Shown piece by piece: positions 48,585 through 61,518 of a DNA stretch of 64,000 nucleotides. The stretch's first letter is position 1, and every line of letters begins with the position of its first letter. Both the position numbers and the translations under genes were made by a program. The notes beneath the pieces are model-generated. The model was not told the DNA's origin. It saw only the letters and a program-made list of their open reading frames with translations, and ran no database searches. Source of the stretch: a virus; the IMG/VR virus record IMGVR_UViG_3300045988_011398. The stretch is one strand, 5' to 3'.

Positions 48585-48785
48585 TTACTTGTAGTACACT
48601 AACACAAATTGACCATTTTCCTTCAGAAGGGAAACAATGTCTTCTCTTTTTACCCCTTCCTCATTAGCAGTTTTTACAATCTCCCTAATTGTATTAGCTG
48701 CCATTGCAGTCATAATTTGGTGAACCACATTGGTTTCAGAAACCTTCTTAGTTCTTACCATTTTGCTCTTCTCAATTTCTTCCAT
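48585..48785 (-). CDS. Hypothetical protein (66 aa)
   Basis: First ORF downstream (minus sense) of the tRNA array. Confidence 0.4.
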   Translation of the reverse strand: MEEIEKSKMVRTKKVSETNVVHQIMTAMAANTIREIVKTANEEGVKREDIVSLLKENGQFVLVYYK

Positions 48786-48802
48786 AGCTTAACTAAAATT
48801 AG

Positions 48803-48872
48803 TTGCGGAGGTAGGAATTGAACCTACGGAGTCCAGCTTATGAGACTGGATTGAATACCAATTCTCCCCGCG
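48803..48872 (-). tRNA. tRNA-Met(CAT), irregular acceptor/D junction
   Basis: Anticodon arm CCAGT CTCATAA GCTGG and T arm GTAGG TTCAATT CCTAC. The acceptor is either 6 bp, or CGCGGGG/CTCCGCA with a C1xA72 mismatch. Confidence 0.6.
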
Positions 48873-48880
48873 ATGTTTAG

Positions 48881-48952
48881 TGCAGATAGACAGACTCGAA
48901 CTGTCACATTGACATTGGAAGTGTCACATACTGACCTTTATACTATACCTGC
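48881..48952 (-). tRNA. tRNA-Gly(TCC)
   Basis: Acceptor GCAGGTA/TATCTGC, anticodon arm TGACA CTTCCAA TGTCA, T arm GACAG TTCGAGT CTGTC. Confidence 0.8.
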
Positions 48953-48957
48953 ATTTG

Positions 48958-49030
48958 AGTAGATAACTGGATTTGAACCAGCCCCTTGACATTGGCAATG
49001 TCATATGCTAACCACTAACACCATACCTAC
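48958..49030 (-). tRNA. tRNA-Gly(GCC)
   Basis: Acceptor GTAGGTA/TATCTAC, anticodon loop TTGCCAA, T loop TTCAAAT, discriminator U. Confidence 0.8.
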
Positions 49031-49209
49031 ATAAAGCCAAAGATTTGCATCTGGTACTTTGGCATTGCAAGGTTTCACCTTAACTTGCACCCTCCTTCAC
49101 ATTCCACCCATATCCAGCTTGTTATAGTGTCAGCTCACTTTGGGGTTTCCATTGGACTAAGGAGTGTTAGCCTCTCACTGAATGGAATACAGCTTTTACT
49201 AACTTGTTG
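49031..49209 (-). other. 179-nt structured spacer inside the tRNA array (unassigned, possible ncRNA)
   Basis: No T-arm consensus, but several stable hairpins: GCCAAAG...CTTTGGC, AAGGT ttc ACCTT nested in GCAAG...CTTGC, and TTCCATT...AATGGAA. Confidence 0.3.
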
Positions 49210-49281
49210 AGGCTTCTGTCAGAATCGAACTGACATTACTGGGTTACAAAGCCAGTTTCCTAACCATTGAAAGAAGAAGCC
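49210..49281 (-). tRNA. tRNA-Thr(TGT)
   Basis: Acceptor GGCTTCT/AGAAGCC, T arm GTCAG TTCGATT CTGAC, anticodon loop TTTGTAA (31:39 C-C mismatch). Confidence 0.75.
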
Positions 49282-49285
49282 ATTG

Positions 49286-49369
49286 TAGCTCAAGAGGGAT
49301 TTGAACCCTCAATCCCTAAAGGGCGAGGGATTTTAAGTCCCTTGTGTATGCCAGTTCCACCATTGAGCC
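49286..49369 (-). tRNA. tRNA-Leu(TAA), type II
   Basis: Long variable arm, anticodon arm AGGGA CTTAAAA TCCCT, T arm GAGGG TTCAAAT CCCTC, G1:U72. Confidence 0.8.
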
Positions 49370-49377
49370 ATTATATA

Positions 49378-49830
49378 TTAATAAGGTCTAATATCACAAA
49401 GTTCAAATAGATACTTATACTTATTAATATTCTGAATGAATGTCTCACACTCTGAAGTAATACCTTTATATACAGTCTCCTGTGGTATCTTATCATAGAA
49501 TACTACAGTAGCACCTCTTACTTCATTTATGAAGTCTATAGCATTAAGAGTATCACTTGGAGTACCTTTTATAACATTAGGTTGCATCTTACCAAGTATT
49601 CCCATGTATCCTTCTGCAAGACTGTCTTGATAGTCTGAAAGTATGCTCAGAAATTCATCAAGATATACATGTATATTCTTCTTAGGTGCTGCCCAATGCA
49701 AGTTTTTACACTTTGTTTTCCACCCTTCAAGTCTATTCAAGAAGCTAATAAAGAACTCGGAAGGATTCATATTAGGGTCTTCTTGTTTCATTGTTTCAAG
49801 TGGTGTCAATAACATATCATCACCATACAT
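49378..49830 (-). CDS. Dps/ferritin-like four-helix protein (150 aa) embedded in the tRNA array
   Basis: KNLHWAAPKKNIHVYLDEF...DYQDSLAEGYMGILGK parallels the Dps signature (HW...H...D-x3-E ferroxidase ligands). Own promoter box at 49856-49863. Confidence 0.45.
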   Translation of the reverse strand: MYGDDMLLTPLETMKQEDPNMNPSEFFISFLNRLEGWKTKCKNLHWAAPKKNIHVYLDEFLSILSDYQDSLAEGYMGILGKMQPNVIKGTPSDTLNAIDFINEVRGATVVFYDKIPQETVYKGITSECETFIQNINKYKYLFELCDIRPY

Positions 49831-49855
49831 AAGCTTTATTGTTTATTTGATAATG

Positions 49856-49889
49856 CAAAGGTAAGTATTTTATTTGGAATATGCAAATA
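49856..49889 (-). promoter_or_regulatory. Bacteroidetes-type promoter (-7 TACCTTTG, -33 TTTGC)
   Basis: Gene-sense ATTTGCATATTCCAAATAAAATACTTACCTTTGCATTA, with the -7 box 26 nt upstream of the ATG at 49830. Confidence 0.65.
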
Positions 49890-49916
49890 AAATGCTAATT
49901 ATTTTTCAATTATTTG

Positions 49917-50005
49917 TACCCTCTGTGAGACTCGAACTCACACACTACTATTACTTCATCCCAGTTTCTAAGACTGGTGTGTCTACCAAATTCCACCAAG
50001 AGGGC
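49917..50005 (-). tRNA. tRNA-Leu(TAG), type II
   Basis: Anticodon arm CCAGT CTTAGAA ACTGG, T arm GTGAG TTCGAGT CTCAC, long variable region, G1:U72. Confidence 0.75.
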
Positions 50006-50011
50006 ATATTG

Positions 50012-50097
50012 TGCTCCTGAAGAGAGTCGAACTCTTAATCTCTATTTCAAGCCCTGACTTTTGAGGTCAGTGTGTATTCCAATTCCACCACAGGAGC
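50012..50097 (-). tRNA. tRNA-Leu(CAA), type II
   Basis: Acceptor GCTCCTG perfectly paired, anticodon arm CTGAC CTCAAAA GTCAG, T arm AAGAG TTCGACT CTCTT. Confidence 0.8.
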
Positions 50098-50103
50098 ATT
50101 ATG

Positions 50104-50179
50104 TGGGGACTCTGGGAATTGAACCACAAGCCTACAGTTTTTCAGACTGCCGTGCAATAACCACCTACACCAAGTCTCC
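50104..50179 (-). tRNA. tRNA-Phe(GAA)-like with a defective T stem
   Basis: Anticodon arm GCAGT CTGAAAA ACTGT is good. The T loop TTCAATT is flanked by only 2 clear base pairs. A3:C70 mismatch in the acceptor. Confidence 0.5.
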
Positions 50180-50247
50180 ATATTGACTTATTTGCATCTC
50201 TACCTGCATCACCTTCCATAAGTCAAGGACAAAAATTTCTATTGAAG

Positions 50248-50333
50248 TGGGAGTGGTAGGATTCGGACCTACTGAGTTTCTAATGTGCTGGTTTTACAGA
50301 CCAGTGCCCATCCACCATCTGAGCAGCACCCCC
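50248..50333 (-). tRNA. tRNA-Tyr(GTA), type II
   Basis: Acceptor GGGGGTG (one G:U), anticodon arm CTGGT CTGTAAA ACCAG, T arm GTAGG TCCGAAT CCTAC, long variable arm. Confidence 0.8.
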
Positions 50334-50341
50334 ATAATAAG

Positions 50342-50414
50342 TTCCCTCATAAGGAATCGAACCTTACTCTCAGGATTAAAAGTCCAGAGCATCCACCAAC
50401 AATGCTTTGAGGGA
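50342..50414 (-). tRNA. tRNA-Lys(TTT)
   Basis: Acceptor TCCCTCA/TGAGGGA, anticodon loop CTTTTAA, T arm TAAGG TTCGATT CCTTA. Confidence 0.75.
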
Positions 50415-50419
50415 ATATG

Positions 50420-50493
50420 TGCTCCCACAAGGACTCGAACCTTGAGTCCCCTGTTTAAGAGACAGGTGCTTTAACCAATTCAGCTATAGGAGC
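50420..50493 (-). tRNA. tRNA-Lys(CTT)
   Basis: Anticodon arm CCTGT CTCTTAA ACAGG, T arm CAAGG TTCGAGT CCTTG. Confidence 0.8.
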
Positions 50494-50500
50494 TTATAAG

Positions 50501-50575
50501 ACTTGGAGGTGGGATTTGAACCCACGAATCATCAGATTTGCAGTCTGTGCCCTTAGACCACTCAGGTACTCCAAG
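50501..50575 (-). tRNA. tRNA-Cys(GCA)
   Basis: Acceptor CTTGGAG/CTCCAAG, anticodon loop CTGCAAA, T arm GTGGG TTCAAAT CCCAC, discriminator U. Confidence 0.75.
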
Positions 50576-50579
50576 ATAG

Positions 50580-50651
50580 TACTGGTATAAGGACTTGAAC
50601 CTTCATCTTGAGTGTATAAGACTCCTGCACTAACCATTATGCTATACCAGT
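50580..50651 (-). tRNA. tRNA-Ile(TAT)
   Basis: Acceptor ACTGGTA/TACCAGT, anticodon loop CTTATAC (UAU anticodon, reads AUA), T loop TTCAAGT. Confidence 0.7.
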
Positions 50652-50658
50652 ATATTGG

Positions 50659-50730
50659 GGTGTCTGATGGGACTTGAACCCACACAATTTGGAGCCACAA
50701 TCCAAAGCTCTACCATTAAGCTACAGACAC
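50659..50730 (-). tRNA. tRNA-His(GTG)
   Basis: Acceptor GTGTCTG/CAGACAC, anticodon arm TTGGA TTGTGGC TCCAA, discriminator C. No G-1 is encoded. Confidence 0.75.
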
Positions 50731-50732
50731 AG

Positions 50733-50804
50733 TTCTGATGGATAGACTCGAACTATCAACTACTGCCTTATGAGAGCAGCTTTCTACCATTGAAATACAT
50801 CAGA
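50733..50804 (-). tRNA. tRNA-Met or Ile2 (CAT)
   Basis: Acceptor TCTGATG/CATCAGA, anticodon arm CTGCT CTCATAA GGCAG, T arm GATAG TTCGAGT CTATC. Confidence 0.75.
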
Positions 50805-50811
50805 ATATAAG

Positions 50812-50884
50812 TGGGCAAGTAAGGACTCGAACCTTCATTACTTGAATATCAGTCAAGCTTCCTGACCAATTAGAAGACATGCCC
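50812..50884 (-). tRNA. tRNA-Ile(GAT)
   Basis: Anticodon arm CTTGA CTGATAT TCAAG, T loop TTCGAGT, one U:U mismatch at 6:67. Confidence 0.7.
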
Positions 50885-50891
50885 ATTTTAG

Positions 50892-50964
50892 CTAAGGTGG
50901 CAGGACTTGAACCCACAACTGCTGGTTTTGGAGACCAGTGTTCTACCAATTGAACTACACCCTA
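50892..50964 (-). tRNA. tRNA-Trp(CCA)
   Basis: Anticodon arm CTGGT CTCCAAA ACCAG, T loop TTCAAGT, discriminator G. Confidence 0.8.
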
Positions 50965-50970
50965 ATTTAG

Positions 50971-51043
50971 TTGCAGGTAGTGGATTTGCACCACTGTTCC
51001 CCCCATTATGAGTGGGGCAAGATAACTACTTCTCCAACCTGCG
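50971..51043 (-). tRNA. tRNA-fMet-like (CAT) with a C1xA72 mismatch
   Basis: Acceptor CGCAGGT/ACCTGCA (C1 opposite A72, the bacterial initiator hallmark). Anticodon arm CCCCA CTCATAA TGGGG. Unusual T loop TGCAAAT. Confidence 0.7.
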
Positions 51044-51156
51044 GAAGAAACATCAAATCATGTGATTATGTCTCCTTATTGCACTCAGAGACTTTTCAGA
51101 AATGATGGCATCAAGTATTGCAAGCTACTTGACTGAACTTCTTGCAAAAGTTCTTG

Positions 51157-51228
51157 CGGGAAGTGTAGGACTCGAACCTACAGCCTGAGGATTAACAGTC
51201 CCCTGCTCTACCATTGAGCTAACAACCC
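51157..51228 (-). tRNA. tRNA-Asn(GTT) with two U:U mismatches in the acceptor stem
   Basis: Canonical D arm AGCTCAATGGTAGAGCA, anticodon loop CTGTTAA, T arm GTAGG TTCGAGT CCTAC. Acceptor GGGTTGT vs ACTTCCC. Confidence 0.6.
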
Positions 51229-51236
51229 ATTATTAG

Positions 51237-51310
51237 TTGCTCCTATTAGAATCGAACTAATGACCTTCTGTGTGTAAAACAGACATTCTGAACCACTGAA
51301 CTAAGGAGCA
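51237..51310 (-). tRNA. tRNA-Val(TAC)
   Basis: Acceptor TGCTCCT/AGGAGCA, anticodon arm TCTGT TTTACAC ACAGA, T arm ATTAG TTCGATT CTAAT. Confidence 0.8.
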
Positions 51311-51396
51311 ATGAAGGCAGTTTCTTTAATCTCTAACTGCCCAAAAGAGTGTCCAAAGCAAAAGCTCTAACATTATGAAAACATGAAAACAATGAG

Positions 51397-51469
51397 TGGA
51401 GAATGAGGGACTTGAACCCTAAACTCTTCTTTGCAAAAGAAGTGTGTTAGCCAATTACACCACAAACCC
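51397..51469 (-). tRNA. tRNA-Ala(TGC)-like with a poorly paired acceptor stem
   Basis: Anticodon arm CTTCT TTTGCAA AGAAG and D arm GTGT/ACAC are good, and G3:U70 is possible. Positions 4-7 of the acceptor are mismatched against ATTCTCC. Confidence 0.5.
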
Positions 51470-51475
51470 CATTAG

Positions 51476-51551
51476 TAGAGTAGACAAGACTCGAACTTGC
51501 AATATCACTGCATCCCAAATGCAGGGGGCTAACCAATTACCCTACTACTCT
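51476..51551 (-). tRNA. tRNA-Pro(TGG)
   Basis: Acceptor AGAGTAG/CTACTCT, anticodon arm CTGCA TTTGGGA TGCAG, T loop TTCGAGT. Confidence 0.75.
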
Positions 51552-51558
51552 ATATTTG

Positions 51559-51643
51559 CGGAGAGCATTGTACTCGAAACAAATGCCTTTTACAGCACAC
51601 ATTACTTAGCAGGTAAGTCCACTGCCTCAGTGGTTTACTCTCC
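51559..51643 (-). tRNA. tRNA-Ser(GCT), type II
   Basis: Anticodon loop CTGCTAA, long variable arm, T arm ATTGT TTCGAGT ACAAT, discriminator G. Confidence 0.75.
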
Positions 51644-51668
51644 ATTAATCAGCCTTTCAAAGAACATG

Positions 51669-51753
51669 CGGAGGAATGAGGTCCCGACCCCCAAGCATTT
51701 TACTGCTCAATCTGTTTTCAAGACAGTTCCCAGTCCCACTGAGTTACCCCTCC
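51669..51753 (-). tRNA. tRNA-Ser(TGA), type II, atypical T loop
   Basis: Anticodon loop CTTGAAA, variable arm AGCA...TGCT, discriminator G. T loop GTCGGGA deviates from the TTCRANY consensus. Confidence 0.6.
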
Positions 51754-51759
51754 ATTGGC

Positions 51760-51830
51760 AGGATGTGGGGGAATTGAACCCCAATCTCCTGATTGACAGT
51801 CAGGCACATTAACCACTATGCTACACACCC
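51760..51830 (-). tRNA. tRNA-Asp(GTC) with a 4-bp T stem
   Basis: Acceptor GGGTGTG/CACATCC (G3:U70), anticodon arm CCTGA CTGTCAA TCAGG, T arm GGGG TTCAATT CCCC. Confidence 0.65.
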
Positions 51831-51839
51831 TATAATATG

Positions 51840-51912
51840 TAGTGTCACTGAGAATTGAACTCAGATTTCCAGTTTGAGAGACTGGTTGCCTCACCATTTA
51901 GCAGATGACACC
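51840..51912 (-). tRNA. tRNA-Glu(CTC)
   Basis: Anticodon arm CCAGT CTCTCAA ACTGG, T arm CTGAG TTCAATT CTCAG. Confidence 0.8.
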
Positions 51913-51918
51913 ATTTAG

Positions 51919-51991
51919 TATTGGGTAGGAGACTTGAACTCCTCTCTTCAGATTGAAAGTCTGATGAACTGACCACCTATTCTAACCCAAC
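51919..51991 (-). tRNA. tRNA-Glu(TTC)
   Basis: Anticodon arm TCAGA CTTTCAA TCTGA, T arm AGGAG TTCAAGT CTCCT. Confidence 0.8.
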
Positions 51992-51998
51992 ATTTATG

Positions 51999-52070
51999 TA
52001 CCCCCTGAGGGAATCGAACCCCCATTAAAGGCTTAGAAGACCCTTGCATTATCCATTATACTAAGAGGGC
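51999..52070 (-). tRNA. tRNA-Arg(TCT)
   Basis: Anticodon loop CTTCTAA, T loop TTCGATT, acceptor GCCCTCT with two G:U pairs. Confidence 0.7.
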
Positions 52071-52078
52071 ATTTATTG

Positions 52079-52150
52079 TTGCTGTTAGAGGACTCGAACC
52101 TCTACTATAAGAGCCAAAATCTTATGTGACTACCATTACACCAAACAGCA
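52079..52150 (-). tRNA. tRNA-Gln(TTG)
   Basis: Acceptor TGCTGTT/AACAGCA, anticodon arm TAAGA TTTTGGC TCTTA, T arm AGAGG TTCGAGT CCTCT. First gene of the array. Confidence 0.8.
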
Positions 52151-52299
52151 ATATAAAAAGAAAAAGGAATACTACTTAACACAATGGTTCAAGTGGTATT
52201 CCTTCTAACACTAAATTACCAACCAAAACCAATCTTTATGTACCTTCAATTAGTTGCCCATTATTGTTTTGCATATCCTTTTTATCCTTAATTGCACTG

Positions 52300-52334
52300 C
52301 AAAGATAAGTAAAATTTTTGAGATATGCAAATCT
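52300..52334 (-). promoter_or_regulatory. Bacteroidetes-type promoter driving the tRNA array (-7 TATCTTTG, -33 TTTGC)
   Basis: Gene-sense GATTTGCATATCTCAAAAATTTTACTTATCTTTGCAGTG, ~150 nt upstream of the first tRNA (52150). Confidence 0.65.
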
Positions 52335-52448
52335 TTAAGGAATTATTTTATCAACTATTTTATAACTCTCTCATTATCAGTGTTTACTGCATTGTCAGGA
52401 AGAGTAGTATTAAGATTGATTTTGAGTGCTGTTTATCAAAACAAGCTA

Positions 52449-53866: not shown

Positions 53867-54701
53867 ATTGTGTGCAATGTTTTATGATTCAATTAATTAA
53901 GTCTGTGAACTGAATGAAACTGGTTCACCTTATAAATTGAACTTATGCAGTGCTGTAGTCAGGTGAAGGTAGTAATGCAAAACCCCTCACTACTTTGCCA
54001 ATTTGAATCATCAACAAATCACCATCAATCTGTAATGTATAGCTAAATTTACTGAGTGCAACACAAAATCAAACTATTGATAACCTGATTAAATATCACC
54101 CCAATGCACAATATTGCCCAGTTTATTTGTGAATAATAGTAGCAAAAGACACCAAACACAGGGCTAAATGTGTGAGAGAACAAACTAATAATCCTATAAT
54201 CACTGATTAGTCATACATTATTTCTTATTTAGACTACTGAGGAGCATGACTTAATGAAAGTTAGCTGGGAAGTAAAGATACATACACCTCCAAGGACTGT
54301 GTGAGATTAAAAGGGTGATTTCATCACTCAGAATACATCAATAGCTTAGTGAGTGGAAAGGAATAGACTCAACTTAGAACCCAGAAACAAGTAATGAGTA
54401 AGATTGTGAACTGTGTATCCAATATTGTGTAGTAAAATAAAATATGATGTAGTAAAGTGGCACAGGTTTATGTTCAGTGCATTAAATAGGTAATGGAGAC
54501 TAAAGAGACATACATTATATAATAATATTGTCTTGGATAAAGTCTGACCTTCTATCTTTACAGGATTAATCAAGAGAACTACAAAGCACATTAGTTTAAT
54601 GGAAAACATTATTGAGGTATAGTACTTAATAATATGATGGTTCAAATCCATCATGTGCTTCAATTAACAAACAACAATCAATCAATCAAACTTTCAAACA
54701 A

Positions 54702-56383: not shown

Positions 56384-56457
56384 GCTGCCATAGCTCAATT
56401 GGATAGAGCAACAGACTTCTAATCTGTAGGTTCTGAGTTCGAGTCTCAGTGGTAGTA
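56384..56457 (+). tRNA. tRNA-Arg(TCT), second copy, + strand
   Basis: Acceptor GCTGCCA/TGGTAGT (two G:U), D arm GCTC AATTGGATA GAGC, anticodon arm ACAGA CTTCTAA TCTGT, T arm CTGAG TTCGAGT CTCAG. Confidence 0.8.
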
Positions 56458-56494
56458 CAACAATAAACAATTAAACAATTAAACATTTAATCTT

Positions 56495-58400: not shown

Positions 58401-58725
58401 GGGGCATGATTTGGTTTTGATTGCTGATTATCAGGTAAGAGAACATGCAGAGACTGATGGAGAGACATCAAACAATTAACTGGCAATACTTCTTATAGAG
58501 TTGCTGCCTAAACATAGGCTGAGCAGCACTTGCTTGGAAACAGAAAGGTGCAATAGTGGTGGATTTTCCTTATTTATCTGACCCTGACAAGTTAAATAAG
58601 GTGGTGGAATGGTATGTCAATCCGGGCAACCCCAGTAGATAACCAACTGCACATCAAATAGGTAAGCATGTGAAATTCTTTTACAGGAGATTAGTAAGAC
58701 AGGGGTTCGAGTCCCCTATGCTCCA
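58401..58725 (+). ncRNA. ssrA: tmRNA (ssrA-like) with tag ORF GNTSYRVAA-stop
   Basis: 5' GGGGCATGATTTGGTTTTGATTGC matches the tmRNA 5' consensus. 3' GACAGGGGTTCGAGTCCCCTATGCTCCA gives a T arm plus acceptor. Acceptor GGGGCAT/ATGCTCC has G3:U70 (Ala identity). Internal frame GGC AAT ACT TCT TAT AGA GTT GCT GCC TAA lies at 58482-58511. CCA is not encoded. Confidence 0.85.
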
Positions 58726-58752
58726 CATTAAACTTAATTAATTCTTAAAACA

Positions 58753-59429: not shown

Positions 59430-60839
59430 ATGAGTAAAGTAAATCCGTCATTGAAGAAAACCTCAAAGTTTGAGGAAGAAAGATTGGCTGGTGGTTCAGG
59501 TGCATTAGCAGCTAAACAGAGTAATGTTGCATTGTTGAGGAGAGCAGTATTAGCTAATCTTCTTTGGGAAGATGTAGCATACATGGATGGAATGAAGGTT
59601 GCTGAAGAAATTCAGAGATTGATTCCTTTGTGTCCTGCTGAAGATGTATATCACATTGCTCTTGAAGCAAGGACAATGCAGAAGTTAAGACATACTCCTT
59701 TATTCCTTGCAGTGGAAATGTGCAAGTATCCTGAGCATAAGAAGTTTGTGCAAGAATTGCTGCCTCAGATTATCACAAGAGCAGACATGCTTACTGATTT
59801 CTTGGCTATTTATTGGAGGGATGGTAAGAAACCTATTGCTAATCAAGCAAAGAAAGGTTTGGCAAAGGCATTCCATAATTTCAATGAATACAAGTTTGCT
59901 AAATATGATAGAGATGCAGCTATTAAGCTGAGAGATGTCATGTTCTTATGCAGACCTAAGCCTGAGAATCAGTATGAGCAGACTTTGTTCAAGAAGGTAG
60001 CAGATAGAACTCTTGCAACACCTGAGACATGGGAAGTGCTACTGTCTACTGGAAAGGATAAGAAAGAGTCTTGGGCTAAACTTATCACTGAAGGTAAGAT
60101 TGGTGGTCTGGCTATGTTGAGAAATATAGCCAACATGAGAAGAGCAAGTGTGGACAAGAAGGTGATTGAAGAAGGTCTTGAGAAGTTGAAATCTTCAATG
60201 CTCATGCCTTTGGACTTCTTGAAAGCAAATAAAATGAACCCTGAGTTCAGCAGACAGATAGAGGATGCTATGATAAGTAGCTATGCTAATTTGCCTGAGT
60301 TGAAAGGTAAGACTCTTTTCATTGTGGATGTGTCAGGTTCTATGCAAGCTCCAATGTCTGCAAAATCTGATTTCAGCAGATATGATGCAGCATGTGCTAT
60401 GGCTATGTTAGCAGCCAATCAGTGTGAGGACTATGAAATAGTTTGTACTGCTGGTAATGACTACTCTCATACAGGAGCACATGAGCATATTCCTTATCCT
60501 CAGAAAGGTTTTGGAATCTTTGAACAAATCCATAGCACTAATAGGAGAATTGGAGGTGGAGGTATATTCACCAGACAATGCCTTGAATGGTGTAATGACA
60601 AGTTCAAGGGTCAGAAGTTTGATAGAATCATTGTATTCTCAGACTCTCAAGACTGTGACTTGCCTGCAAGGAGAGTTCCTAAACCTTTTGGTACTTACAA
60701 CTATATTTGTGATGTGTCAGCACACACAAAAGGTGTAAACTACAGAGGTGCATGGACTGCTGAGATAAGTGGCTTCTCGGAGCATTTCATCACATTCATT
60801 GCAGCAATGGAAGGTATTCAGAATACCTTTGAAGAATAA
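59430..60839 (+). CDS. rsr: Ro60-like protein (TROVE domain + vWA domain with a MIDAS motif), Rsr ortholog candidate
   Basis: 469 aa. N-terminal RLAGGSGALAAKQSNVALLRRAVLANLLWEDVAY and VYHIALEARTMQKLRHTPLFLAVEM resemble TROVE signatures. C-terminal LFIVDVSGSMQAPMS (DxSxS MIDAS) and IIVFSDSQD indicate a vWA fold. A Y-RNA-like element starts 4 nt after the stop. Confidence 0.7.
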   Translation: MSKVNPSLKKTSKFEEERLAGGSGALAAKQSNVALLRRAVLANLLWEDVAYMDGMKVAEEIQRLIPLCPAEDVYHIALEARTMQKLRHTPLFLAVEMCKYPEHKKFVQELLPQIITRADMLTDFLAIYWRDGKKPIANQAKKGLAKAFHNFNEYKFAKYDRDAAIKLRDVMFLCRPKPENQYEQTLFKKVADRTLATPETWEVLLSTGKDKKESWAKLITEGKIGGLAMLRNIANMRRASVDKKVIEEGLEKLKSSMLMPLDFLKANKMNPEFSRQIEDAMISSYANLPELKGKTLFIVDVSGSMQAPMSAKSDFSRYDAACAMAMLAANQCEDYEIVCTAGNDYSHTGAHEHIPYPQKGFGIFEQIHSTNRRIGGGGIFTRQCLEWCNDKFKGQKFDRIIVFSDSQDCDLPARRVPKPFGTYNYICDVSAHTKGVNYRGAWTAEISGFSEHFITFIAAMEGIQNTFEE

Positions 60840-60842
60840 AAC

Positions 60843-60986
60843 AAAGAGTACTGTGTAGTGTTTTGTCAGACTTACTTCATTAACTAAGTGGTATAGTGCA
60901 AAACTTTTAATTTTGATGTCACAGGTTCGAGTCCTGTATGAGATTGGGGAAACCTAAGTCTGACATCTGTTCTCACAGTACTCTTT
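60843..60986 (+). ncRNA. YrlA-like Y RNA: a long terminal helix carrying an embedded tRNA-like cloverleaf
   Basis: Terminal 13-bp helix AAAGAGTACTGTG/CACAGTACTCTTT, an internal loop, then 10-bp GTCAGACTTA/TAAGTCTGAC. Inside: acceptor-like TTCAT/ATGAG, D arm ACTA AGTGGTA TAGT, anticodon-like arm CAAAA CTTTTAA TTTTG, T arm ACAGG TTCGAGT CCTGT. Confidence 0.65.
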
Positions 60987-60993
60987 TCAATAT

Positions 60994-61125
60994 GGAGGAG
61001 TTAGCTCAGTTGGTAGAGCACTTAAATGTTACTCTGTCAAATGTTCCATAGTAATATTGGTGGCAGATAGAGTTACTTCGGTATGTGGAACCAGTGGTCA
61101 TAGGTTCGAGTCCTATACTCCTCCC
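60994..61125 (+). ncRNA. tRNA-like RNA 1: canonical acceptor, D and T arms, with ~74 nt in place of the anticodon arm
   Basis: GGAGGAGT...ACTCCTCC (8 bp possible), D arm GCTC AGTTGGTA GAGC, T arm ATAGG TTCGAGT CCTAT. The insert contains stem ACTCTGTC/GATAGAGT, a GTAA-capped hairpin and the motif AGAGTTACTTCGGT. Confidence 0.55.
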
Positions 61126-61126
61126 T

Positions 61127-61235
61127 AAATGCAGTATAGTGTACATTAGACTTTCATCAATTTGAATTTGATAATAGTTGCGGATATGCTTTTGCAAAGT
61201 GTATATATTGTCTGATGGCTTTTCTTACTGCATTT
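61127..61235 (+). ncRNA. Stem-closed structured RNA (unassigned)
   Basis: 10-bp terminal helix AAATGCAGTA/TACTGCATTT enclosing ~90 nt with internal hairpins (ATCAA...TTGAT; TTGC...GCAA). No ORF. Confidence 0.4.
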
Positions 61236-61243
61236 CACAATAT

Positions 61244-61375
61244 GGGGATGTAGCTAAATAAATTCATACTCTTATGCCTTTTCTCTGGTAAAGCAGTAGT
61301 GTTTGTAAGAGTTACTTCGGTTATAGCATTTGTCTTGTAAACAAAAGTATATTGGTTCGAGTCCAATCATCCCCG
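61244..61375 (+). ncRNA. tRNA-like RNA 2, paralog of tRNA-like RNA 1
   Basis: Acceptor GGGGATG/CATCCCC, T arm ATTGG TTCGAGT CCAAT, degenerate D region. The insert has a covarying stem ACTCTTA/TAAGAGT followed by the same AGAGTTACTTCGGT motif. Same 5' flank CAATATGG as RNA 1. Confidence 0.55.
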
Positions 61376-61381
61376 CAAAAT

Positions 61382-61518
61382 AGAGGTTGGTGTATGTAGT
61401 GGTTACTTCATATTATACATGACTATATTTGAATTTAACCCCCACAGATGTAAACAGACTGATTCTGTGGTTTCAATACATACAAAAACAACATGCCATT
61501 ACAGGATGTTCCACCTCT
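61382..61518 (+). ncRNA. Stem-closed structured RNA (unassigned)
   Basis: Terminal helix AGAGGT(T)GG/CCACCTCT. Inner pairings GTATGTA/TACATAC and hairpin CCACAGA...TCTGTGG. Contains GGTTACTTC, related to the motif in the tRNA-like RNAs. Confidence 0.4.

Follow-up and report, generated by a model that had tools for sequence, protein, structure and literature searches.

A 29-gene tRNA array of the crAss001 type in a crAss-like phage sequence and its probable role in late-gene translation

Few viruses of the human gut are as abundant as the crAss-like phages, some of which carry tens of tRNA genes. The closest described system to the locus reported here is the tRNA array of crAss001 (Kehishuvirus primarius), whose genome holds 25 tRNA genes that serve 17 amino acids (PMC6235969). 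The number of encoded tRNAs is 1-34 in Steigviridae and Zeta crAss-like phages (PMC10136315), and codon compensation, host shut-off and anti-defence functions are debated for large phage tRNA sets (PMC10264068, PMC12482277). In this study, we analyzed a 64,000-nucleotide (nt) stretch of viral DNA, the IMG/VR record IMGVR_UViG_3300045988_011398 (hereafter the window), which carries an array of 29 tRNA genes on its minus strand. An earlier description made from the letters alone (hereafter the sequence-only reading) had presented this array as a set covering all 20 amino acids with a dedicated Bacteroidetes-type promoter. The feature is real and was almost correctly described, but it belongs to a known kind of module. 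We regard it, with a probability of about 0.6, as a tRNA operon of a crAss-like Bacteroides phage that sustains the translation of AT-rich late genes during a long infection in which the host is shut off.

Sequence comparison placed the window among the crAss-like phages of the Steigviridae/Asinivirinae, as a Bacteroides virus. Its major capsid protein shares 86% identity with the crAss001 protein and 93% with the one from cr128_1 (86-93% across crAss001, cr85_1 and cr128_1), and it contains giant open reading frames (ORFs) of 2304, 1582 and 1345 amino acids (aa). By the same kind of comparison, the array is the known crAss001-type array, a point that the sequence-only reading had missed. The arrays of crAss001, cr85_1, cr126_1 and Kehishuvirus 'tikkala' share with it the flanks, the order of genes from tRNA-Gln to a tRNA with anticodon CAT, a tRNA-Ile (TAT), and a DpsA-like ORF embedded between two tRNA-Leu genes, the counterpart of which is gp7 in crAss001 and is also found in cr85_1 and cr126_1. 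The position between a gp4-like gene and small regulators plus terminase, at the head of the late strand, is shared as well, and so is the order Gln-Arg-Glu-Asp-Ser-Pro-Ala-Val-Asn-...-Trp-Ile-Met-His-Ile(TAT)-Lys-Lys-Phe-Leu-[DpsA]-Leu-Thr-Gly-Gly-Met. The tRNA-Ile with anticodon UAU, which had been called rare, is thus not rare within this clade, being present in crAss001, cr85_1 and tikkala.

The window array is larger than that of crAss001, in which 23 of the 25 tRNA genes lie in the array. Compared with the default ARAGORN calls on crAss001, the additional genes are Glu(CTC), Ser(TGA), Leu(CAA), Tyr, Cys and a third CAT tRNA; crAss001 nevertheless has an unannotated homologue of Ser(TGA). 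Two features of the window are missing from crAss001, namely a 178-nt structured RNA and a leader bearing a terminator-like hairpin, whereas the HNH and Cys-rich ORF insertions of crAss001 are absent from the window array. The Cys-rich insertion, located between both Ser tRNAs, corresponds to the coding sequence annotated as 'putative ferredoxin-thioredoxin reductase' in crAss001 (gp5, piece L002, 4616-4813) and tikkala (piece L005, 4969-5283), and the adjoining Ser(TGA) tRNA is conserved and unannotated in both records.

A scan of IMG/VR anchored on the Dps gene provided 80 related loci, 49 of which had full flanks. The array of IMGVR_UViG_3300045988_001597 was 99.1% identical to that of the window. 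Among the 49 fully flanked loci, the number of same-strand tRNAs per locus ranged from 1 to 29, and all 20 amino acids were covered in 8 loci. In cr128_1, the relative with the closest capsid protein, the array was lost and two Arg(TCT) genes were kept, and Arg(TCT) was the most persistent tRNA gene across the relatives. Judged from these sequences, the array is a known kind of accessory module that varies greatly, and the copy in the window is the fullest one seen in a comparison with about 80 relatives, several of which also cover 20 amino acids.

The gene content was examined with automated finders. With default settings, ARAGORN called 27 minus-strand tRNA genes in the interval 48802-52150, and the Rfam model RF00005 matched the same 27 genes, all at or above the gathering score (31.7-71.3 bits). 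The other two genes, Ser(GCT) and Ser(TGA), both with long variable arms, were recovered in the 204-nt gap between tRNA-Pro and tRNA-Asp when ARAGORN was run with -ps90 (threshold 90%). They had been missed by default ARAGORN and gave no Rfam match even at E<=10, which for Ser(TGA) is attributable to its unusual T-loop (GTCGGGA), a sequence that is invariant across relatives. Five related phages had a sequence that could be aligned with Ser(TGA) and three had one for Ser(GCT), with a cloverleaf consensus in both cases and compensatory changes in 12/30 and 9/30 pairs, respectively, which argues that the two Ser genes are not chance folds. The array therefore comprises 29 genes with 27 distinct anticodons for 20 amino acids, the last figure depending on the acceptance of both atypical Ser genes and on isotypes read from anticodons alone. 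These results bore out the sequence-only reading in its count of 29 genes, in every anticodon it had assigned, in the coverage of all 20 amino acids, and in the lack of a suppressor anticodon, as neither CTA, TCA nor TTA occurred among the ARAGORN calls (default and -ps90). Furthermore, the long and late ORFs were intact under code 11 with no sign of stop-codon recoding, and the window does not belong to the class of crAss-like phages with suppressor tRNAs and recoded stops. Most genes are tightly packed, with 21 of the 28 spacers measuring 1-7 nt by ARAGORN coordinates, and the anticodon loops showed the canonical 7-nt form Y-U-NNN-R-N in 29/29 tRNAs. Besides tRNA genes, the array holds the DpsA-like ORF, the 178-nt structured RNA and three conserved spacer elements (Table 1).

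Analysis of the 3' ends revealed a C74 templated after the discriminator in 29/29 array genes. The statement that none of them encodes CCA was wrong for tRNA-Asp (G73) and tRNA-His (C73), both of which carry a full in-register CCA. Across 1,424 array tRNAs from the 80 related loci, C74 was templated in 98.8%, while full CCA was mostly limited to His, Leu(TAA) and Asp, so that templated C74 is a clade-wide feature. Three CAT tRNAs were found, as had been described; the C1xA72 mismatch, reported for a single initiator-like gene, was present in two of them (nos. 1 and 3 in Table 1). Direct reading showed A11:U24 in both of these tRNAs, and neither has the GGG:CCC anticodon stem of a canonical initiator. 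CAT no. 1 starts with 5' CGCGGGG, has a shortened D-arm, and is homologous to a gene annotated as tRNA-fMet in tikkala, and CAT no. 3 has G55 in its T-loop. Nos. 1 and 3 are thus candidate initiator-like tRNAs, and no. 2 is a candidate elongator of the Met or Ile2 type. The second Arg(TCT), noted earlier on the plus strand, was confirmed by ARAGORN and Rfam; it shares only about 64% identity with the array copy and is therefore not a recent duplicate, although it would take part in the decoding function of the array.

The atypical members of the array could be taken as signs of decay, in which case many genes would be non-functional relics of a once-acquired tRNA island and the 20-amino-acid kit would be incidental. 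The low scores of CAT no. 1 (31.7 bits) and Tyr (38.1 bits), the lack of an Rfam match for both Ser genes, and the frequent tRNA losses in relatives would be in line with such a history. However, compensatory substitutions keep the cloverleaves, even those of the atypical Ser genes, the genes keep their order and close spacing in different genera, C74 is retained in 98.8% of the 1,424 genes, and all anticodon loops are intact. We consider decaying cargo to be very improbable.

Codon counts were obtained from 51 ORFs (17,920 codons). The results showed that AGA makes up 82% of Arg codons, in agreement with its noted dominance, AGG 17%, and all CGN codons together 0.7% (6 codons). NCG codons were almost absent, ATA accounted for 42% of Ile codons, and TTA was heavily used. 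The near absence of CGN is due to an extreme avoidance of CpG: the observed/expected (o/e) ratio of this dinucleotide was 0.04 in the 64 kb (91 CG observed vs 2,113 expected), with a GpC o/e of 0.97 and with CA and TG raised to about 1.2. As many as 37 of the 91 CG dinucleotides of the window lie in RNA genes. The CpG o/e of relatives was 0.05-0.29. Restriction or defence avoidance and methylation-driven decay are possible causes of the depletion, and a literature search of limited scope on CpG depletion in crAss-like phages found nothing relevant. The sole gap in the tRNA set, the lack of a CGN reader, coincides with the codons that the phage does not use, and the total dependence on AGR codons accounts for the presence of Arg(TCT) in two copies and for its retention in array-less relatives. 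CpG avoidance, exclusive AGR use and the persistence of Arg(UCU) are thus concretely linked, which points to the tRNA that is indispensable.

The share of codons that the 29 tRNAs could read depended on the decoding rules assumed, rising from 53.6% with Watson-Crick pairing only to 83.3% with standard wobble, 97.8% with U34 reading A, G and U, and 99.97% with superwobble (U34 reading all four bases), where only the CGN codons (6/17,920) were unreadable. The description of the set as close to a self-sufficient decoding kit therefore holds only if U34 reads the whole box. Likewise, the proposed match between U34 and A-ending codons was borne out only partly, since in the Ala, Thr, Pro, Gly and Leu(CUN) boxes the most frequent codon ends in T.

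The region upstream of tRNA-Gln contains a promoter-like element with a -33 TTTG, a 20-nt spacer and a -7 TAtcTTTG. The motif TTTG-N20-TATCTTTG at 52300-52331 on the minus strand is of the Bacteroidetes primary-sigma type (-33 TTTG / -7 TAnnTTTG). The 34-nt core, together with the upstream sequence AAAATAATT, is almost base-for-base conserved in crAss001, tikkala, cr85_1 and bajarodcaudo virus, and the core sits upstream of tRNA-Gln in all five phages amid diverged flanking sequence. This good comparative support suggests that the element is functional. Two of the four matches to the generic motif in the window are intergenic, on the correct strand and near-identical, one being the element before tRNA-Gln and the other lying 26 nt before the Dps ORF.

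The promoter-like element is separated from tRNA-Gln by a leader of about 147 nt. Folding indicated that this leader ends in a terminator-like hairpin (52163-52205) and a U-run (52153-52162). The distance from promoter to tRNA-Gln is about 25 nt in crAss001, whereas the window and cr85_1 have an insert of about 100-120 nt. The cr85_1 leader (piece L001, 7079-7205, minus strand) has an analogous hairpin and U-run, the same design in a different sequence, and the leader is absent from crAss001, tikkala and bajarodcaudo virus. As modelled, the hairpin looks like an intrinsic terminator or attenuator, and entry into the array may be regulated. Attenuation through a leader peptide, encoded by a 12-aa ORF MQNNNGQLIEGT, was considered and dropped, as this ORF is not conserved in cr85_1. 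At the other end of the array, CAT no. 1 lies 17 nt before the next ORF (48585-48785). No minus-strand terminator-like site was found 3' of the array in a sigma-70 promoter/terminator scan, which is uninformative for Bacteroidetes and limited to loops of 3-8 nt; owing to this loop limit, the scan also missed the leader hairpin. The lack of a terminator-like site after the last tRNA makes read-through into the late genes plausible.

A 178-nt element between tRNA-Thr and tRNA-Gly(GCC) was conserved better than many of the array tRNAs. The interval between these two tRNA genes holds it in 27 other loci as well, namely 25 IMG/VR contigs detected by pattern scan plus cr85_1 and cr126_1, with lengths of 161-203 nt. 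Seven helices make up the structure derived from the alignment, and the loop of its second hairpin pairs with a segment further downstream to give a pseudoknot. With this fold, 95.6% of cells were paired and 18/44 pairs showed compensatory changes, a level that was reached by 0/500 shuffles, while slid controls gave 32-54%. The covariation also held on a wider alignment built with a covariance model. The z-score of the minimum free energy was unremarkable (-0.69), and the structure is supported by covariation, not by stability. Of the 80 Dps-anchored IMG/VR loci, 24 (25 hits with the window, about 30%) gave a single covariance-model match per genome, and crAss001, tikkala, bajarodcaudo virus and cr128_1 gave none.

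Neither the 178-nt RNA nor the array spacers matched any Rfam 15 family at E<=10 (48700-52400), and a crude pattern scan for the 178-nt RNA in bacterial genome contigs returned chance matches only (best covariance-model E = 0.34), with no tRNAs nearby. A peptide gene was rejected in view of the lack of a start codon on the transcribed strand, indels that are not all multiples of three, and the strong compensatory changes; RNase P RNA, 6S RNA, a T-box and known ribozymes were rejected in view of the lack of an Rfam match and of the unfitting size and architecture. On the strength of covariation, we regard the element as a well-supported, previously undescribed and unclassified structured RNA. 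The stable RNAs of the phage T4 tRNA cluster are released from the tRNA precursor, and, by its position, the 178-nt RNA would be released in an analogous way. It is testable in cultured relatives.

Three spacers of the array are conserved as well. The Ala-Val spacer measures 81-101 nt in 44 related loci and forms a covarying hairpin GGGCAGUU...AACUGCCC (alifold, 26 distinct sequences), the Asn-Met spacer measures 102-112 nt in 21 related loci and contains several hairpins, and the Tyr-Phe spacer measures 66-71 nt in 42 related loci and forms a covarying nested hairpin with the loop GGUAGAGA. Loops with UAGAG occur in two of the three. These hairpins could be processing signals or small RNAs.

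From these observations, we infer how the array would be transcribed, processed and used. Host RNA polymerase would start at the conserved Bacteroidetes-type promoter, with possible control at the leader terminator, and would produce one long precursor containing the 29 tRNAs, the Dps-like mRNA, which would also have its own promoter, the 178-nt RNA, and several spacer hairpins. As no terminator was found after the last tRNA, this precursor probably continues into the late genes. Host RNase P and 3'-end nucleases would free the tRNAs, and the host CCA-adding enzyme would finish the 27 tRNAs that are templated only to C74. The set is minimal: each four-codon box has one U34 tRNA, NNY boxes are served by G34 tRNAs, and arginine depends on Arg(UCU) alone. 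It fits a genome nearly rid of CpG, in which CGN codons are hence not used. The most likely role of this set would be to keep the AGA- and AUA-heavy late genes translated while host transcription is shut down, Arg(UCU) presumably being the indispensable core and the other tRNAs an accessory boost. In cells infected by crAss001, transcription is inhibited across the host genome at 10-30 min, and late genes switch on at 30-60 min (PMC8375218). The proposed role fits this timing and the position of the array at the head of the late strand.

Several observations weigh against this role. T-ending codons are the commonest in six four-codon boxes and make up 14.5% of all codons, and they need either extended U34 wobble or host tRNAs. 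The generic motif TTTG-N17-23-TAnnTTTG is not enriched in the window (4 found vs 3.1 expected), so that the argument for the promoter is one of conservation only. The strong hairpin and U-run between promoter and tRNA-Gln, present here and in cr85_1, make simple constitutive read-in doubtful. The crAss001 RNA-sequencing (transcriptome) paper makes no mention of tRNAs. Finally, cr128_1 lacks the array except for two Arg(TCT) genes, yet its codon usage differs little from that of the window (r = 0.955 for relative synonymous codon usage; AGA 75%, ATA 46%), which indicates that the full array is not required by the codon bias.

The codon usage of cr128_1 also bears on pure codon compensation, by which the array would only supply isoacceptors that a host of about 42-43% GC has too few of for the demands of a CpG-free phage with 36% GC. 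The heavy use of AGA, ATA and TTA together with the presence of the matching Arg, Ile and Leu tRNAs, the duplication and persistence of Arg(TCT), and the GC content of crAss001, well below that of its host (PMC6235969), are all in keeping with compensation. However, an array-less relative with the same codon usage implies that compensation cannot be the whole story; moreover, the set includes tRNAs that would be abundant in any host (Met, Trp, Asp, Phe and others), and the commonest codons GCT, ACT, CCT and CTT have no Watson-Crick phage tRNA. Compensation on its own thus seems improbable to us, and support of late-gene translation under host shut-off, combined with codon support and with Arg(UCU) as its core, is ranked first.

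The early-gene block of the window, on the plus strand, contains further RNA-related genes (Table 1). At its start lies an odd tRNA-like gene, the anticodon stem of which has 9 bp and the loop 8 nt (Rfam 47 bits, fold z-score -4.3). Its crAss001 homologue, 91 nt long and annotated as tRNA-OTHER (piece L006, 1112-1202), differs in loop sequence, and the gene is therefore probably not a decoder; a suppressor or frameshift tRNA was rejected on account of this difference and of the absence of recoding. A 153-aa 2H phosphoesterase matches the tRNA-ligase CPD domain and has two HxT motifs. A transfer-messenger RNA (tmRNA; Rfam 66.4 bits) with the tag GNTSYRVAA has homologues in cr106_1 (annotated SsrA), tikkala (under 'hypothetical protein' calls) and cr128_1, and none was found in the crAss001 early region. 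The Ro60/TROVE (vWA) protein is 77% identical to crAss001 gp96. Directly after its gene follows a tRNA-Lys(TTT) with about 61% identity to the array copy and a mismatched acceptor pair, which has no counterpart at that position in crAss001. PDB sequence searches with the 153-aa protein and a 256-aa early protein gave nothing useful.

Two tRNA-like RNAs are located downstream of the Ro60 gene. Both have tRNA acceptor and T arms (and a D-arm in element A), a hairpin of about 40-50 nt that replaces or extends the anticodon arm, and the invariant motif AGAGUUACUUC in common, and both are conserved, unannotated, 3' of crAss001 gp96 (piece L006, 6085-6228 and 6339-6478). TTACTTCR occurs in four copies in 60872-61410. 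The two RNAs resemble the bacterial YrlA Y RNAs in having a Ro60/TROVE neighbour and a tRNA-like domain (PMC4201824). They gave no match to the YrlA model RF02553 at E<=1, and their ends form the acceptor stem, whereas the 5' and 3' ends of YrlA form the Ro-binding stem. Both are candidate analogues of Y RNAs, with a topology other than that of YrlA. Relatives have an annotated polynucleotide kinase/phosphatase, and together with Ro60, the tmRNA and the 2H phosphoesterase this gene content suggests a theme of RNA repair and quality control.

Such an early region would also suit a counter-defence function, in which phage tRNAs replace or out-compete host tRNAs hit by tRNA-targeting immunity (PrrC/RloC-type anticodon nucleases, retron effectors, PARIS AriB or Schlafen-like nucleases) and resist attack themselves through their differing sequence. 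The principle was shown in other phages (PMC10264068, PMC11555353, PMC11464382), and Shkoporov et al. saw no match between host tRNAs and crAss001 (PMC6235969). The array size of 1-29 among close relatives with the same Dps anchor resembles the accessory pattern of an arms race, the array-less cr128_1 retains the same codon usage, and several array tRNAs have atypical T-loops or D-arms. The early genes in question are those for Ro60/TROVE with its two tRNA-like RNAs, the 2H phosphoesterase and the tmRNA, as well as the polynucleotide kinase/phosphatase of relatives. Against counter-defence, the anticodon loops are canonical in 29/29 tRNAs, a 20-amino-acid set is broader than needed against a nuclease that hits one or a few isoacceptors, and the present data point to no tRNA-targeting nuclease for these hosts. 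We rank this function second and hold it to be unlikely, if somewhat less so than compensation on its own.

A more tentative proposal, which we put forward as possible rather than probable, is that the array acts as a composite RNA operon and forms a closed decoding system. It would combine a minimal set of 29 tRNAs, matched exactly to a genome freed of CpG that never calls for a CGN reader, with the leader terminator or attenuator and the 178-nt RNA. The 178-nt RNA, freed from the common precursor, would then act on tRNA metabolism, translation or host defence. If this is true, the operon, together with the early Ro60 and its tRNA-like RNAs, the 2H phosphoesterase and the tmRNA, would free phage translation from reliance on host tRNAs, whose pool would be shut off or under attack.

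Table 1. Coordinates of the array, its promoter and leader, and the RNA-related features of the early-gene block in the window
Feature	Position	Strand	Evidence
Promoter-like element TTTGCATATCTCAAAAATTTTACTTATCTTTGCA	52298..52331	-	motif match, conservation
Leader, about 147 nt	52151..52297	-	fold
tRNA-Gln (TTG)	52078..52150	-	ARAGORN + Rfam
tRNA-Arg (TCT)	51998..52070	-	ARAGORN + Rfam
tRNA-Glu (TTC)	51918..51991	-	ARAGORN + Rfam
tRNA-Glu (CTC)	51839..51912	-	ARAGORN + Rfam
tRNA-Asp (GTC), G73, CCA encoded	51756..51831	-	ARAGORN + Rfam
tRNA-Ser (TGA), long variable arm	51668..51753	-	ARAGORN -ps90, covariation
tRNA-Ser (GCT), long variable arm	51558..51643	-	ARAGORN -ps90, covariation
tRNA-Pro (TGG)	51475..51551	-	ARAGORN + Rfam
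tRNA-Ala (TGC)	51396..51470	-	ARAGORN + Rfam
Ala-to-Val spacer, 85 nt, covarying hairpin	51311..51395	-	alignment + alifold
tRNA-Val (TAC)	51236..51310	-	ARAGORN + Rfam
tRNA-Asn (GTT)	51156..51228	-	ARAGORN + Rfam
Asn-to-Met spacer, 112 nt, several hairpins	51044..51155	-	alignment
tRNA (CAT) no. 3, initiator-like	50970..51043	-	ARAGORN + Rfam + direct reading
tRNA-Trp (CCA)	50891..50964	-	ARAGORN + Rfam
tRNA-Ile (GAT)	50811..50884	-	ARAGORN + Rfam
tRNA (CAT) no. 2, U1-A72, elongator type	50732..50804	-	ARAGORN + Rfam
tRNA-His (GTG), C73, CCA encoded, no evident G-1	50656..50730	-	ARAGORN + Rfam
tRNA-Ile (TAT)	50579..50651	-	ARAGORN + Rfam
tRNA-Cys (GCA)	50500..50575	-	ARAGORN + Rfam
tRNA-Lys (CTT)	50419..50493	-	ARAGORN + Rfam
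tRNA-Lys (TTT)	50341..50414	-	ARAGORN + Rfam
tRNA-Tyr (GTA)	50247..50333	-	ARAGORN + Rfam, 38.1 bits
Tyr-to-Phe spacer, 67 nt, covarying nested hairpin	50180..50246	-	alignment
tRNA-Phe (GAA)	50103..50179	-	ARAGORN + Rfam
tRNA-Leu (CAA)	50011..50097	-	ARAGORN + Rfam
tRNA-Leu (TAG)	49916..50005	-	ARAGORN + Rfam
Second promoter-like element TTTGCATATTCCAAATAAAATACTTACCTTTG	49856..49887	-	motif match + direct reading
DpsA-like ORF, 150 aa	49378..49830	-	DUF5856 + phrog_858 matches
tRNA-Leu (TAA)	49285..49369	-	ARAGORN + Rfam
tRNA-Thr (TGT)	49209..49281	-	ARAGORN + Rfam
178-nt structured RNA, 7 helices + pseudoknot	49031..49208	-	covariation, covariance model
tRNA-Gly (GCC)	48957..49030	-	ARAGORN + Rfam
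tRNA-Gly (TCC)	48880..48952	-	ARAGORN + Rfam
tRNA (CAT) no. 1, initiator-like, last array gene	48802..48872	-	ARAGORN + Rfam (31.7 bits)
tRNA-like gene, start of early block	54585..54661	+	Rfam, fold
Second tRNA-Arg (TCT), early-gene block	56384..56458	+	ARAGORN + Rfam
2H phosphoesterase, 153 aa	56722..57183	+	domain match, motifs
tmRNA	58401..58728	+	Rfam
Ro60/TROVE (vWA) protein	59430..60839		identity to crAss001 gp96
tRNA-Lys (TTT) after Ro60 gene	60874..60945	+	
Ro60-adjacent tRNA-like RNA	60995..61125	+	conservation in crAss001
Ro60-adjacent tRNA-like RNA	61244..61376	+	conservation in crAss001

Comparison with systems outside the crAss-like phages places the array in a wider context. Phage T4 has a polycistronic cluster of eight tRNAs with tight spacing, most of which lack an encoded CCA and need host RNase P and the CCA-adding enzyme, and this cluster embeds small stable RNAs other than tRNAs (species 1 and 2, rnaC/rnaD). 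The window array has no sequence relationship to the T4 cluster, and its embedded RNA is pseudoknotted and unrelated to the T4 RNAs. Near-complete isoacceptor sets are likewise found in the lytic Shigella phage Sf14 (26 tRNAs, 19 amino acids), in T5, in KVP40-like phages and in huge phages, from which the window differs in its Bacteroidota host, its promoter type, its genome of about 100 kb, and its near-total avoidance of CpG. To the general picture of phage tRNA clusters, which is unchanged, our analysis adds the logic that connects CpG, AGR codons and Arg(UCU), the leader hairpin, and an unclassified structured RNA. In Mollicutes and organelles, minimal sets consist of one U34 tRNA per four-codon box with a tRNA-Ile(UAU) for AUA, and unused codons are lost. 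The set of the window resembles these minimal sets, but it supplements a full host set instead of replacing one.

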